A stretch of DNA of 56,815 nt from Candidatus Micrarchaeota archaeon (lineage in GTDB: Archaea > Micrarchaeota > Micrarchaeia > Micrarchaeales > CABMGC01): contig JAGWGX010000004.1 in NCBI GenBank assembly GCA_028867145.1, positions 1-56,815 on the forward strand. The letters run 5' to 3'. Each line of letters opens with the position of its first letter. The stretch's first letter is position 1. Below, piece by piece: positions 19,475 through 44,340 of the stretch. Under the pieces are notes generated by a model. That model ran no database searches. It saw nothing but the letters and a program-made list of their open reading frames with translations, and was not told where the DNA came from. The position numbers were made by a program, and so were the translations under genes.

Positions 19475-22063
19475 ATGCCAAGCGGCAAGCTCATTGGAAG
19501 CGCAATCGCGGTAGTGCTGCTAACCGCAATCTACTTCGTGTTTCTCTATCCTCAATCAAACGCCTCCCTTAGTTCGAATTTAACCAGCAAGCTCCAGCAA
19601 AGCCAGCTGGCGATACAGCTGACTGACCCGCCGCAGGTTCCCGCGGGGACGCAGGCGCTCATCATCACCTATTCCGGAGTGCAGGTGCACGCGCCTAGCG
19701 TTACCGGGTCGGGGTGGCTCTCGGGCTCAGGAAGCGGCAGCCTAGATTTGCTCTCCCTTGTAAACCTCACCCAGACAATAGCCTCCGCAAACGTTCCCGC
19801 AAATGTGAGCGTGGACATGGTCAGGTTCAATGTCACCTCTGCCGTCATAAAGATAAACAACACAATCTCAAACGTGACCCTTAGTGCAAAAATGCTAACC
19901 GCCAAGGTTTACGGCTCCAAATCAGTCAACGGCTCCACATCAAGCGTGGTGATACAGCTCTCCCCAACGGTTGCGACCATCTTCACTAACACCTCCACGG
20001 TATTTGTGATGGTGCCTTCCCTAAAGGCAGTGGTGGTCCCTCGCGCGAACTCCACCTCGCTGCGCGTTGGGGTGAACGTAAAGCTTGACTCCGTCGTGAA
20101 GCAGCAGTTTATACAGATCGTGCCAAACATCTCCATCACCTCCGCATCCCTGAAGGTGGCCCCTTCTGGCGTTACCCACCTCTCCCTTACCGTCCAAAAT
20201 AACTACAACAAGAGCGTCTTCTTGCAGCGCATCGGGGTCTTTGGAAACGAGAGCGTACAGCTCAACTCTACCGCGGTCCAAAACCAGGTGCAGCTTTTGC
20301 TAAACAACATCACCTCCCACATCCAGAGCAGCGGCTACTGCACGCAGGCTGCATCTACCCAGAGCGTGAACGTCTGCCCTGGAGGGAGCTCCTTTAATTC
20401 CACCACAAACGGATGCTCCTGCCCAAGTGGCCAGCAGTTCAACTCTCACCACGTCTGCCAGCAACTTCAGATCACTACGGGAACCTGCCCTGGAGGAAGC
20501 GTTTTCAATCCCCAGACAAACAGCTGCTCATGCCCAGTGGGCTTCCTCTTTGACTCAAGGAATGTCTGCGTGTACTCCGGAATTCCCTCCCTTAACTCAA
20601 GCTCGCAAAGGTCTGTGAATCCGCCAAACACGATTGTCACAACAACCATCCCCAAGACCAGCTCTACAACAACCGTGCCGCAAAATGCAATAACAACAAC
20701 CATTCCGTCAAATACAATCACAACCACAATTCCGACAAACTCTTCAGCCATCCTCTACATCTCGGCAAACCCCTCAAACGGGTTCGCTGCAATTTCCCCA
20801 GCCCCAGGCCCTCACTATTTCCCCTCAAACACCCAGGTCACTTTGTCTGAGAGCGCATCTAGTGGGTACGTCTTTACCGGGTGGATCGGAAGCGGCAGCG
20901 GCAGCTACACTGGAAACCTGCCTTCGGTGACCATAACCGTCTCCGGCCAAGTGGGAGAGGCTGCAAACTATGCCCCTGCAAACAGCCCGTCCACAGCTGG
21001 CGGCTCGCAAAACACCTCCACCACTTCAATCATACAGTATCCTGTCTCGATTTCAGTAAGCCCTGCAGGTTCAGGTGCAACCTCGCCTTCAGGAACGCAC
21101 TACTACAGCTCCGGACTCTCGCTCACAATGGGAGAGGCGGCGATAGGCAACTACGTATTTGTCGGATGGATAGGATCAGGAAGCGGGAGCTACACCGGGA
21201 ACACTCCAACCCCAACCATAACCGTCTCAAACGCAATAAGTGAGGTAGCGTACTTTGCGCTTCCATCCTCCGCGGGCACGCATGTGCCGCCAATACAGCA
21301 GCAGGCGGCAACCGGAACGCAGTTCCAGTGCACCTCCTCATCCGACTCGCTTTCATGCACGACACAGTTTAGCGGCGGGCAGGGGAAGTGCGTATACTCA
21401 TTTGCGAGCGGGATATTCTCATGCACCTCCTCCTTTGGCCAGAGCATACAGTCTAAGTGCACGTTTAGCAACAATCTTCTGAGCTGCCAGGACAGCGGGT
21501 TCAACTGCAACTACCAGCAGAGCACCGGCACGCTATCGTGCCTCTCCGCATACGCCTCAGCCTCAGGTGTCACCTCCACTGCTTCGGGTTCAACATCCAC
21601 ACCAAGTGCAGGAACATCAACTACCCAGTTTGGCTCTGACCTTGCATCAGCAGTCAAGTCCGCTGCCTCTTCAGGCAGATTCTCCACTGGGACCACAATC
21701 CAGATTAACAGCACGCTTTGCACCCCTGCTGGAATCTCCGCTTTCAGGCAGCAGCTTACAAACCAGATGCAGTCCGCGGCAGCGCGCACAAGGGACGAGC
21801 AGGGGCACCAGGGCCTTCTCATGTTCTCCATAAATGCTGATCAGACGCTTTCAATACCAAGGAGCCAGGCGCAGTTTACAAGCTCCGGAATTACCCTGCA
21901 GCCTGGCCAGTCAATCACGCTTTCATACGATGGGCTTTTCTCAATCTCGCAGGCGGGCTTCACATTCAGCCCGATTGCAGGGACAATCTACAAGGTGGGA
22001 GCAGAGAGCCAGGAGGGTGCAAGGGGATTCTTGAATGTGACCGCAGCCTCCTCTTCCAGCTAA
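19475..22063 (+). CDS. Large modular cell-surface protein (DUF4382-like N-domain, Cys-rich repeats, Thr linker, two B-repeat/Flg_new-like domains)
   Basis: N-terminal TM, LTDPPQVP motif, 2x CPGGS.FN..TN.CSCP.G..F.S..VC, TTTIP repeats, 2x YVF.GWIGSGSGSYTGN. Confidence 0.85.
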   Translation: MPSGKLIGSAIAVVLLTAIYFVFLYPQSNASLSSNLTSKLQQSQLAIQLTDPPQVPAGTQALIITYSGVQVHAPSVTGSGWLSGSGSGSLDLLSLVNLTQTIASANVPANVSVDMVRFNVTSAVIKINNTISNVTLSAKMLTAKVYGSKSVNGSTSSVVIQLSPTVATIFTNTSTVFVMVPSLKAVVVPRANSTSLRVGVNVKLDSVVKQQFIQIVPNISITSASLKVAPSGVTHLSLTVQNNYNKSVFLQRIGVFGNESVQLNSTAVQNQVQLLLNNITSHIQSSGYCTQAASTQSVNVCPGGSSFNSTTNGCSCPSGQQFNSHHVCQQLQITTGTCPGGSVFNPQTNSCSCPVGFLFDSRNVCVYSGIPSLNSSSQRSVNPPNTIVTTTIPKTSSTTTVPQNAITTTIPSNTITTTIPTNSSAILYISANPSNGFAAISPAPGPHYFPSNTQVTLSESASSGYVFTGWIGSGSGSYTGNLPSVTITVSGQVGEAANYAPANSPSTAGGSQNTSTTSIIQYPVSISVSPAGSGATSPSGTHYYSSGLSLTMGEAAIGNYVFVGWIGSGSGSYTGNTPTPTITVSNAISEVAYFALPSSAGTHVPPIQQQAATGTQFQCTSSSDSLSCTTQFSGGQGKCVYSFASGIFSCTSSFGQSIQSKCTFSNNLLSCQDSGFNCNYQQSTGTLSCLSAYASASGVTSTASGSTSTPSAGTSTTQFGSDLASAVKSAASSGRFSTGTTIQINSTLCTPAGISAFRQQLTNQMQSAAARTRDEQGHQGLLMFSINADQTLSIPRSQAQFTSSGITLQPGQSITLSYDGLFSISQAGFTFSPIAGTIYKVGAESQEGARGFLNVTAASSSS

Positions 22064-22135
22064 TTTGAGGGCTCTCGCAACCTAGGGCTTCACCAATAAT
22101 CAATATAAATATAAACAAACACAAGTAGTAGGCAT

Positions 22136-22261
22136 GCCAGGGTGGCAGAATCCGGTAACGCGCCGGTCTTGAGATAATTTTCAAGAGCTGATCTTCGGAG
22201 ATGATGCGACAAGCAAACCGGTGCCCTCACGGGCTTTAGGGTTCAAATCCCTACCCTGGCG
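22136..22261 (+). tRNA. tRNA-Ser(UGA) with a 42-nt intron at canonical position 37/38 (22174-22215)
   Basis: Acceptor GCCAGGG/CCCTGGC with G73, long variable arm, anticodon stem CCGGT/ACCGG; BHB with central helix CTTG/CAAG and bulges AGA and CAA. Confidence 0.93.
22174..22215 (+). ncRNA. Putative intron-encoded minimal box C/D guide RNA (K-turn) targeting U34 of the host tRNA
   Basis: Guide TTTTCAAGA (22178-22186), D box CTGA (22188-22191), TC-TTCG-GA hairpin, GAT bulge, C-like box ATGATGC (22201-22207). Confidence 0.7.
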
Positions 22262-22334
22262 AACCTACTGAAAAAAGAGACGTTCACTGATGAGCGTATA
22301 AATAACCCGAGCCGCGAAGCGCATAGTGGATTAT

Positions 22335-23090
22335 ATGATTTACAAGGAGCAGTTCGTCTTAATTGCCAAGGAGGCAGGAATAAATCTGCGCGAGATGTTT
22401 CGAAACGGTGAGGACACCGCGGCTGTAAAGAAAAAGGAGGGAATGAGCCCTGCGATCGCAGCAGACATCAAGACCGAGAGGTTCATACTAGACGCCATAA
22501 GGAAAACAGGATTCTCCGGCACCGTGCTAAGCGAGGAGGCGGGCTTGGTGAGGTTTGGAAACGGGACGATGGTGATTCACCTAGATCCTGTGGACGGCAG
22601 CCGCAACTACATGCACGGGATACCACACTACTGCATCTCAATTGGAGTTACAGAAGAGGGTAAACTCGTTTTAGGTGTGGTCTACAATCCAAACACTGAT
22701 GAGCTCTTCGTTGCAGATGGCGAGACAAGCTTCACAATAAACGGCAAAAGGGCTCCAATTTATCCAAATAAGGAGGTGCTGATCGTATCAGCGACCGACA
22801 AGGAAGAGCTCCACAAGCTGACATCAAATGCGGCAAATCGCGACATAAAGGTGAGGTTCGGCGGCTCCGCAGCCCTGGACCTGTGCTACGTCGCTGCAAG
22901 AAGATTCGACGCCGCAGTAATCACAAAGATATCGCCCCACGATATAGCAGCAGGGCTACTAATTGCAAAAAGGTCCGGAGCCATAATAAGAGATATTGAC
23001 TCTAGAGAGGAGGCGACAATAAACAGCAGGAACCTGATAGCAGCGTCGAGCGAAAAGCTGCTTCAAAGAATTATTGAAATAATAAGGTAA
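22335..23090 (+). CDS. Inositol monophosphatase / FBPase family protein
   Basis: LSEE, LDPVDGSRNY, GSAALDLCYVA, HDIAAG. Confidence 0.9.
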   Translation: MIYKEQFVLIAKEAGINLREMFRNGEDTAAVKKKEGMSPAIAADIKTERFILDAIRKTGFSGTVLSEEAGLVRFGNGTMVIHLDPVDGSRNYMHGIPHYCISIGVTEEGKLVLGVVYNPNTDELFVADGETSFTINGKRAPIYPNKEVLIVSATDKEELHKLTSNAANRDIKVRFGGSAALDLCYVAARRFDAAVITKISPHDIAAGLLIAKRSGAIIRDIDSREEATINSRNLIAASSEKLLQRIIEIIR

Positions 23091-38972: not shown

Positions 38973-39033
38973 TGTCAGACCGCCTATCAATCGTCACAGC
39001 AAAAAGCTCAGCGATTACCTCTGTCATCACTCG
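38973..39033 (-). ncRNA. Box C/D sRNA (dual guide)
   Basis: Minus strand: C GTGATGA, 12-nt guide CAGAGGTAATCG, D' CTGA, short hairpin, C' GTGACGA, 12-nt guide TTGATAGGCGGT, D CTGA. Confidence 0.85.
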
Positions 39034-44083: not shown

Positions 44084-44340
44084 GGCAGCACCGGCCTTGC
44101 TATACAAAGCGATGCAAGGTGATCTAGACATCTGCTCAGCCCCGTATCTCTAGAGCATAGTAAACATAGACTTAGGGTTGCTCCTTCCGGCCTGGCCCGG
44201 TTCGAATATGCAACTACCACTAGAGGCGAAACCTCAACGCTTCCGCCTAGGCCTTGCACAACTTTGTAACACGCAGCCGGTATTGGCCCGCCTGAAGGGG
44301 ATTTGCGGATGGGAGACCCCTAGCCTCCCGCCTTGCTGCC
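44084..44340 (-). ncRNA. ffs: Signal recognition particle (7S) RNA
   Basis: Helix 8 motif GAACCGGGCCAGGCCGGAAGGAGCAACCC, terminal helix GGCAGCA/TGCTGCC, Alu-like domain with AGGGG/CCCCT complementarity. Confidence 0.93.

Follow-up and report, generated by a model that had tools for sequence, protein, structure and literature searches.

A short tRNA-Ser(UGA) intron of Micrarchaeales carries a conserved single-kink-turn box C/D-like module that may guide methylation of its own wobble nucleotide

The closest described relative of the element reported here is the intron of the euryarchaeal pre-tRNA-Trp, a box C/D RNA nested within a tRNA gene in Haloferax volcanii and, under the name sR50, in Pyrococcus (PMC7994747, PMC11408192, PMC4090602, PMC2584109). 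As the accessible parts of these papers describe it, this intron lies between positions 37 and 38, guides the 2'-O-methylation of the wobble nucleotide 34 of its own host and depends on L7Ae, Nop5 and fibrillarin; its guide and splicing folds compete, so methylation must precede splicing. It measures about 65 nt or more, combines C/D and C'/D' motifs and carries guides for positions 34 and 39 that form duplexes of about 10 nt. The portions available to us of two reviews call it 'a unique example' (PMC4090602, from 2014) or name it as the only case of an intron-embedded guide (PMC11408192, from 2024). In this work we analysed a stretch of 56,815 nt (positions 1 to 56,815 of contig JAGWGX010000004.1, assembly GCA_028867145.1) from a Candidatus Micrarchaeota archaeon, hereafter the window, and in particular the 42-nt intron of its tRNA-Ser(UGA) gene. 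This intron shares with that of tRNA-Trp the 37/38 site, the competition between two folds and a predicted guide to the wobble nucleotide of its own host, in a genome that encodes all three proteins; it differs in its host, which is tRNA-Ser(UGA) or tRNA-Ser(CGA), in its length of 31-48 nt across the order, and in having one kink-turn (K-turn) or kink-loop (K-loop), one guide and only 6-7 conserved guide pairs. With a probability of roughly 60%, we propose that it acts in cis as a single-K-turn (D'/C'-type) box C/D-like guide for 2'-O-methylation of nucleotide 34 (Nm34), and that the precursor then switches to a splicing fold.

A second point of comparison is the internal D'/C' motif of archaeal box C/D small RNAs (sRNAs), which was reportedly characterised as a K-loop by Nolivos et al. 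in 2005. The archaeal consensus consists of an RUGAUGA C-type element and a CUGA D-type element that together are capable of forming a K-turn or a K-loop. The tRNA-Ser intron has the same succession of elements as the D'/C' unit, i.e. a guide, CUGA, a few nucleotides and RUGAUG(A), with the guide 5' of the D' box and the target expected opposite the fifth nucleotide upstream of that box (D+5). In contrast, the D'/C' unit of sRNAs never stands alone: a terminal C/D K-turn flanks it at a fixed spacing of 12 nt, and the Ser intron has none. The K-loop is likewise given as the form of the internal D'/C' motif in the accessible part of PMC1635284. Stand-alone C/D sRNAs are also known to target position 34, namely that of tRNA-Met, Leu(CAA), Leu(UAA) and Trp in Pyrococcus and that of elongator tRNA-Met in Haloferax (PMC7994747, PMC2584109, in the parts accessible); they resemble the Ser intron in addressing this position within the anticodon loop of a precursor, and the pairing of the haloarchaeal Met guide even involves the intron, so that methylation comes before splicing. 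These sRNAs are, however, the products of separate trans-acting genes, whereas in the order studied here the Met and Ser guides are intronic; in the genomes covered by the 2008 paper the Met guide was 'always exonic' (PMC2584109, available part).

No description of a guide within a tRNA-Ser intron, or in any member of the Micrarchaeota, was found in the literature covered, which consisted mostly of open-access main texts. The accessible parts of these sources make no mention of tRNA-Ser as a target of position-34 C/D sRNAs, and those of the literature covered, which included PMC3239211, PMC12397907 and PMC3218864, describe 2'-O-methylated U34 or C34 (Um34, Cm34) in tRNA-Ser for no archaeon. 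This agrees with the preliminary description of the locus, made from the letters of the window, which knew of no tRNA-Ser example; the portions of the reviews that were available give tRNA-Trp alone.

The pre-tRNA-Ser(UGA) gene occupies positions 22136-22261 of the plus strand, in the gap between two open reading frames (ORFs) at 19475-22063 and 22326-23090. Rfam recognises a tRNA at these positions with 39.9 bits, above its cut-off of 29, and the match is interrupted by an insert within the anticodon loop. The host genome is a Candidatus Micrarchaeota assembly of 681 kb in 40 contigs, with 48.6% G+C and a completeness of 83%. Serine identity follows from the anticodon U34 G35 A36, the long variable arm and the G73 discriminator, and the letters give an anticodon stem CCGGU/ACCGG and a loop that reads C-U-U-G-A-G, intron, A, the intron thus falling at 37/38. 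ARAGORN in its default setting, i.e. with no intron mode, missed the gene, and with the option -i it called tRNA-Ala(tgc), a call that we rejected because the 42-nt intron had been set 2 nt early; the Ser(UGA) parse is preferred since with it the anticodon loop is regular and the bulges and the central helix are present in all 69 orthologues described below. The intron consists, in this order, of AUAA, UUUUCAAGA, G, CUGA, UC, UUCG, GA, GAU, GA, U, G, C and GACAAGCA. Its letters and the layout of its boxes, as given in the preliminary description, held when the sequence was read again and when the Rfam match and the parse of the orthologues were considered.

To find orthologues, the complete pre-tRNA was used as a nucleotide query against the host genome and 60 relatives, which gave full-length intron-bearing matches in 58 of these 61 genomes (35/37 in family f1, 23/23 in f3 and 0/1 in f2). 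The 69 full-length pre-tRNA copies extracted from the 58 genomes constitute the set to which all counts out of 69 refer. Every copy shows the same layout, namely a spacer, Y-R-AGAG, CUGA, 4-12 nt, R-UGAUG and a tail of 6-16 nt. CUGA and R-UGAUG (UGAUG after a purine) are invariant in all 69 copies and across two families of the order, whereas the loop, 5' spacer and tail differ between copies in both sequence and length. This invariance of the boxes is not due to a lack of divergence: among the 69 introns there are 67 different sequences, and the alignment columns are on average 66% identical. On the other hand, the bare motif CTGA-N2-12-TGATG is common, with 63 occurrences on both strands of the 681-kb genome against about 57 calculated by chance, and its weight therefore comes only from conservation.

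In a sample of 401 genomes of the phylum, the pattern CAAGAGCUGA-N2-12-UGAUG was present in 76/82 genomes of f1, in 88/94 of f3 and in 4/223 of other families; a control with the pattern reversed gave 4 matches in the 401 genomes. Judging from these patterns, the module is confined to one clade. A pattern derived from the intron matched at least 120 public genome contigs, and among the 80 matches listed 72 were titled Candidatus Micrarchaeota, Micrarchaeia, Micrarchaeales or Micrarchaeaceae; the 8 contigs with other labels may be mis-binned. As to the genomes that did not contribute to the set, the UGA gene was absent from the search results in two f1 genomes (84% and 94% complete), and in the only f2 genome both tRNA-Ser(UGA) and tRNA-Ser(CGA) are encoded without an intron. 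Three outgroup genes examined were either intronless or interrupted by a different 35-nt intron without boxes.

The intron stretch upstream of CUGA is complementary to the anticodon loop of the precursor in a fixed register. D+5 lies opposite position 34 in 69 of the 69 orthologues; standard pairs link D+2 to D+7 with tRNA positions 31-36 in 67-69 of them, and D+8 with position 37 in 49. Further upstream, D+9, D+10, D+11 and D+12 pair with positions 38-41 of the spliced tRNA in 28, 10, 9 and 14 copies, respectively. The conserved duplex, as read from these counts, comprises 6-7 bp (positions 31-37) formed with the precursor anticodon loop, and nothing in the sequences suggests a pairing over the splice junction of the mature tRNA. 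On an alignment of 67 distinct rows (A1) the six-pair guide helix is 94% paired, and sliding the partner columns by 1-3 positions lowers this value to 24-45%. The preliminary description had already placed D+5 on U34, a register that is kept throughout, and had proposed the conservation of CUGA, UGAUG and the guide in related introns as a check, which is borne out in the two families. It had also described a 9-bp duplex with U31-A39 of the spliced tRNA: nine pairs are indeed possible in the window, whereas the conserved part is limited to D+2 through D+7 or D+8, and the partner of the conserved pairs is the precursor anticodon loop rather than the spliced tRNA.

Immediately 3' of the guide, the window fits a K-turn with a 2-bp C-stem, a 3-nt GAU bulge, tandem G.A pairs, U/U and C-G, followed by a predicted G-C pair to which D+1 contributes the G. 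The combination of D+1 with the base that follows UGAUG is G-C in 62 orthologues, and the other 7 have G-U; the last position of the C box is C or U, which pairs with the G at D+1, rather than A. The GA/GA positions are invariant in 69/69, and the U/U and C-G of stem II are fixed as well; the identity of stem II matters for Nop5-type proteins but is not known to matter for L7Ae alone. Of the 69 spacers between CUGA and UGAUG, 43 are 4 nt long, 9 are 5 nt and 17 are 6-12 nt. The 4-nt form reads as a K-loop, as in the internal D'/C' motif of archaeal sRNAs, and the K-turn with a UC/GA stem appears from the letters to be a trait of the window's genus and of a few others. Some of the relatives with a long spacer keep complementary ends in different letters. 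Thus, the canonical K-turn with a UC/GA stem that was originally assigned to this intron fits the genus and a few others, but it gives way to a 4-nt K-loop in 43 of the 69.

The anticodon of the host provides a further view of the register. D+5 is an A, opposite U34, in 59 of the 59 UGA genes. The remaining ten copies have the anticodon CGA and look like duplicates of the UGA gene, as their anticodon stem is identical; in 8 of these 10 the base at D+5 is G. When the CGA copies are grouped by nearest-neighbour identity, five of them cluster together and the other five are singletons, one of which is nearest to the UGA gene of its own genome. A maximum-likelihood tree of the 125-nt sequences was poorly resolved, with 8 changes on the best tree. 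Two unpublished genomes, G002 and G050, supply three of the 69 Ser rows (L007, L026 and L065) as well as one row of the tRNA-Met (L210) and one of the tRNA-Trp (L242) sets discussed below, and they are also inside the 401-genome motif tallies; without them the boxes are found in 66/66 copies, A at D+5 in 57/57 UGA genes and G at D+5 in 7/9 CGA copies.

The bases of the anticodon loop that face the guide are also those of the predicted splicing helix. Archaeal tRNA introns of the ordinary kind are typically 12-25 nt long (PMC4090602, accessible part). The Ser intron resembles these bulge-helix-bulge (BHB) introns in its 37/38 site, in the 4-bp helix of positions 32-35 with intron positions n-5 to n-2 and in the 3-nt bulges; it differs from them because the ordinary intron has one anti-anticodon strand, whereas the Ser intron has a second copy and a K-turn. 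In the window, the CAAG of the tail (22210-22213) pairs with C32-G35 to give the central helix, with the splice sites in the expected bulges, and the intron boundaries were set by this helix and the flanking bulges, which are A36 G37 plus the first A of the intron on one side and the final C A plus A38 on the other; the outer helix h' is not evident, so that the motif is a relaxed one. All four pairs of the central helix are possible in 45 orthologues, three in 23 and two in 1, and on alignment A1 the helix is 92.7% paired. This second anti-anticodon copy had been overlooked in the preliminary description. Since the guide and the splicing helix use the same exon bases, the two folds are mutually exclusive, and in protein-free minimum-energy folds the guide helix appears in 43 and the splicing helix in 8 of the 69 precursors. 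The possibility that the guide is merely the splicing strand was rejected, because the splicing strand is the separate copy in the tail; splicing alone therefore leaves the guide unexplained. Haloarchaeal pre-tRNA-Trp and pre-tRNA-Met must likewise leave the guide fold before they are spliced, according to the available part of PMC2584109.

Genes for fibrillarin (261 bits), for two proteins of the L7Ae family and for a Nop5 homologue (162 bits) are present in the host genome, so that the absence of fibrillarin or Nop5, which had been put forward as a result that would speak against a guide, is not what was found, although the Nop5 lacks its N-terminal domain. The alignment of the Nop5 homologue covers residues 132-371 of P. 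furiosus Nop5 and 140-371 of its S. solfataricus counterpart, and on the NCBIfam model it spans positions 125-375 of 417. The splicing endonuclease (EndA) is encoded by a 379-aa frame with two catalytic-type domains. Besides, a strict pattern revealed two canonical dual-guide box C/D sRNAs in the genome, one of which has a D'/C' unit made of CUGA, 4 nt and UGAUGA, like that of the Ser introns with a 4-nt spacer, whereas the other lies in the window (Table 1); given that such sRNAs exist, the box C/D system is presumably in use. This assembly contains no ribosomal RNA (rRNA) genes, and consequently no rRNA targets are available for the canonical sRNAs or for the excised intron. A 12-nt match of a canonical sRNA was discarded as probably due to chance, as it lies within a coding region on the strand that does not correspond to the mRNA.

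Two other tRNA introns of the order carry elements of this kind. The intron of elongator tRNA-Met, of about 45 nt, gave full-length matches in 55 of the 61 genomes, and the 30 copies aligned all conform to one parse: a 5' hairpin, (A/U)UGAG, 2 nt, NNGA, GC, a loop, GC, NNU, GA and a tail. An initial interpretation as a C-then-D hairpin, in which the first GA was poorly conserved, was abandoned in favour of this D'-then-C' arrangement. The guide faces C32-U36, and with the last G of UGAG opposite C32, D+5 falls opposite C34 in 30/30. Its topology is the single-K-turn topology of the window's Ser intron, which bears out the suggestion made at the outset that short tRNA introns of this lineage could be guides. 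The tRNA-Trp intron (28 copies) is a separate element, longer than the Ser intron (about 70 nt), and its K-turn, which is of the same build, is conserved as NNGAGC-loop-GC-GAU-GA. Next come the guide AUUUGGAG, of the form AU(U/C)UGGA(G/A), then 2 nt and, in 25 of the 28 copies, the NNGA of a degenerate D box; in those 25 D+5 lies opposite C34. No clear guide for position 39 was found in the 28 Trp copies.

In other archaea, C/D guides for Cm34 are established for both Trp and elongator Met (PMC7994747, PMC7668247 and PMC2584109, in the parts accessible), and the presence in Met and Trp introns of the same register of D+5 with position 34 supports, by analogy, a guide function for the Ser intron. 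The Met introns and the class of Ser introns with an 18-nt spacer have a GCAAAGC hairpin in common, so the Met and Ser registers were possibly inherited from one intron and would then not be independent; the guide letters have nonetheless been altered to fit each host tRNA. Introns without boxes occur in the same genomes, namely in tRNA-Ile(UAU), Ser(GGA), Phe and Tyr of the host genome and in tRNA-Tyr, Leu(GAG), Gly(CCC), initiator Met and Ser(CGA) of G023, a genome in a single contig in which only Trp, elongator Met and Ser(UGA) carry a K-turn, of 39 tRNA genes plus one from a custom scan. These boxless introns imply that the K-turn is no general requirement for splicing in these organisms.

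Some of these other tRNA genes have features of their own. tRNA-Ser(GGA) of the host genome (G000:C22:79243-79355) combines a boxless anticodon-loop intron of about 12 nt with a T-loop intron of about 16 nt, an arrangement found in several relatives. The gene at G000:C22:34823-34910 (minus strand) was labelled tRNA-Ser(tga) by ARAGORN, but its loop, C-U-U-A-U-A, is that of tRNA-Ile(UAU), with a canonical 13-nt intron. The tRNA-Ser(CGA) genes L197 (in G031) and L204 (in G010) have a non-canonical intron, devoid of K-turn boxes, in the 5' strand of the anticodon stem, and one of the two carries an additional T-loop intron. A loose T-loop scan of the host genome for tRNAs missed by ARAGORN returned almost only false positives, and a stricter scan of G023 added a single gene, tRNA-Leu(UAA) (L302, G023:C1 at about 480440-480541), whose D-loop region seems to contain an insertion and whose anticodon loop is uninterrupted. 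The window also contains, at 44084-44340 on the minus strand, a signal recognition particle (SRP) RNA that is recognised by the Rfam model of the bacterial large SRP RNA (77.1 bits) and not by an archaeal one. The coordinates of the remaining features are collected in Table 1.

Table 1. Positions of the parts of the tRNA-Ser(UGA) locus and of related genes (plain numbers are window positions; other loci are given by genome, contig and position).
Feature	Position	Strand	Remarks
Putative TATA-like box, A+T-rich	22102-22115	+	probable archaeal promoter, located about 21-34 nt before the 5' end of the tRNA
5' exon, positions 1-37	22136-22173	+	Rfam match; parse fits 69/69 orthologues
Anticodon stem, 5' strand	22163-22167	+	C32 U33 = 22168-22169; U34 G35 A36 = 22170-22172; G37 = 22173
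Intron, 42 nt, canonical 37/38 site	22174-22215	+	length from ARAGORN -i; boundaries from the BHB parse
Guide of the window, UUUUCAAGA	22178-22186	+	D+5 = A at 22183, opposite U34 (22170)
Conserved guide, D+8 to D+2 (UUCAAGA)	22180-22186	+	pairs G37 back to U31
D+1 G and D'-type box CUGA	22187-22191	+	D+1 G = 22187; CUGA = 22188-22191
K-turn C-stem UC/GA with UUCG loop	22192-22199	+	4-nt loop instead in most relatives
3-nt bulge GAU	22200-22202	+	C'-type box A-UGAUG-C = 22201-22207; GA-U-G-C = 22203-22207
GA of the C'-type box	22203-22204	+	predicted tandem sheared pairs with GA of CUGA, from the K-turn consensus
3' tail, GACAAGCA	22208-22215	+	CAAG 22210-22213 = second anti-anticodon copy; CA 22214-22215 and A38 = 3' bulge
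3' exon	22216-22261	+	A38, anticodon stem 3' strand 22217-22221, long variable arm, T arm, acceptor 3' strand, discriminator G
Canonical dual-guide box C/D sRNA	38975-39030	-	GUGAUGA, 12 nt, CUGA, 10 nt, GUGACGA, 12 nt, CUGA
Elongator tRNA-Met gene, host genome	G000:C36:13506-13628 (locus L206)		29 orthologues
tRNA-Trp gene, host genome	G000:C12:7066-7210 (locus L236)		27 orthologues
Nop5 homologue	G000:C40:6376-7128 (locus L002 1381-2184)		267 aa

If the intron is a guide, then L7Ae binding, ribonucleoprotein (RNP) assembly, methylation in cis and splicing could follow one another in a simple order. In the precursor, D+3 to D+8, together with D+2, would pair with C32-G37 of the anticodon loop and with U31, and directly 3' of this helix CUGA and RUGAUG would fold into a K-turn, as in the window's genus, or into a K-loop, as in most relatives. 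L7Ae would bind this structure and be joined by Nop5 and fibrillarin, and the latter would methylate the 2'-OH opposite D+5, i.e. that of the wobble U34 or, in the CGA duplicates, of C34. The tRNA body, which tethers the target in cis, might replace the second platform of a conventional box C/D RNP. Thereafter, the anticodon loop would swap its partner for the CAAG copy in the tail, giving rise to the relaxed BHB structure, and the endonuclease would cleave at 37/38 and at the 3' end of the intron, after which the exons would be ligated.

Several observations weigh against this proposal. With respect to the proteins, the Nop5 homologue retains the coiled coil and the RNA-binding domain without the N-terminal domain, which is the part that holds fibrillarin. 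Nor did a search of the genome at E values up to 10 reveal this domain as a separate piece, and no candidate ORF for it adjoins the nop5 or the fibrillarin gene. Furthermore, the truncation is seen across the class, with no match starting before profile position 91 in 61 of 61 genomes sampled; the Pfam family PF08156 (NOP5NT) was uninformative in this regard, as it remained below its own cut-off even in archaeal controls. With respect to the RNA, each Ser intron has only one K-turn or K-loop motif: a second K-turn was found in none of the 69 orthologues, and neither a further GA/GA pair nor a C box recurs about 12 nt away or at any other fixed spacing, the stretch from the intron start to CUGA varying between 12 and 18 nt. 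A search of 22100-22300 with Rfam gave no C/D or small nucleolar RNA family at E values up to 10. The duplex of 6-7 conserved pairs is short, given that the duplexes of natural guides usually span about 10 nt or more. In the Pyrococcus model of Hardin and Batey (2006; PMC1635284, accessible part), complexes with a single motif were active but lost their site specificity, both motifs being needed, and engineered hemi box C/D RNPs were active only under special conditions and regardless of position. The Ser intron shares with such hemi RNPs the single K-turn platform and the single guide; the latter are, however, artificial, whereas the Ser intron would have a natural target tethered in cis.

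The covariation and the distribution of the module set further limits. Two of the ten CGA copies keep an A opposite C34, and the supported branches of the tree hold only two independent contrasts between position 34 and D+5, so that a sign test was not significant. The covariation of the guide with the anticodon, which had been suggested as a check in other intron-containing tRNAs, holds for 8 of the 10 CGA copies; the covariation is consistent but not statistically secured, and in any case covariation is proof of pairing, not of methylation. Finally, the f2 genome and other orders have intronless tRNA-Ser(UGA) or tRNA-Ser(CGA) genes, which implies that the mark, if it is made, is not indispensable.

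The alternative that survives best, although we consider it unlikely, is that the K-turn or K-loop binds L7Ae only and serves as a folding or timing device, or protects the precursor, with no methyl transfer; the anticodon loop and the 5' splice site would be sequestered until end processing or another modification has taken place. This main rival accounts for the conservation of two mutually exclusive helices and for the preference of protein-free folds for the guide helix (43/69 against 8/69), by virtue of which the element would block splicing until it is remodelled. It also accommodates a Nop5 without its fibrillarin-binding domain and the combination of one K-turn with a short duplex, which is unorthodox for a guide. 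However, it does not explain the identity of the full C/D boxes beyond the GA pairs (invariant in 69/69), nor the fixed distance of 5 to the partner of position 34 in the introns of Ser (69/69), Met (30/30) and Trp (25/28), and the other introns of the same genomes are spliced without an element of this kind.

We regard as very improbable that the intron persists after excision as a stable small RNA, in linear or circular form, with a target in trans such as rRNA or another tRNA, its match to the host being a by-product of the intron structure. Stable circular forms exist among archaeal tRNA introns and C/D sRNAs (PMC7994747), and the RNP of the tRNA-Trp intron has been reported to be active in trans (PMC7994747, PMC11408192, PMC4090602; accessible parts in all cases). 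Against such a role, the guide tracks the anticodon of its own host, with A replaced by G where U34 is replaced by C34 in 8 of 10 copies, and is retargeted in the Met intron; besides, 6-7 conserved nucleotides are few for pairing in trans. That the module is a harmless relic, i.e. a C/D sRNA fragment or mobile intron fixed in the ancestor of the two families whose boxes have no present function, is hardly credible: its restriction to one clade, with f2 and other orders lacking it, and the hint of intron spread given by the GCAAAGC hairpin of Met and Ser introns would fit, but a neutral copy would not hold 9 box positions in 69/69 while its neighbours vary (mean identity 66%), and the compensation at D+5 would not be expected.

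A wider reading, which we put forward tentatively and think somewhat less probable than its opposite, is that one order of the Micrarchaeota runs a minimal form of RNA-guided methylation in cis. Its unit would be a portable module of about 25 nt, made of a guide of 6-7 nt and one D'/C' K-loop, with the tRNA body fixing the geometry and a short Nop5 as partner; the module would have spread between tRNA-Ser(UGA/CGA) and elongator tRNA-Met and been retargeted by the change of a few guide bases. If so, the rule that site-specific methylation requires two K-turns would fail in nature, and fibrillarin would be recruited in a new way. The class-wide truncation of Nop5 raises the separate question of how fibrillarin is held.

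In summary, should the Ser intron be a guide, tRNA-Ser and elongator tRNA-Met would be the second and third hosts of an intron-borne guide, in a reduced DPANN lineage, and the arrangement known from the tRNA-Trp intron would be a recurrent one. The element would offer a natural single-K-turn guide with which to probe why box C/D RNPs are otherwise always bipartite. A possible Um34 or Cm34 in tRNA-Ser would bear on the reading of UCA and UCG codons. Furthermore, such a function would provide a concrete selective reason for keeping some of the short tRNA introns of these organisms.

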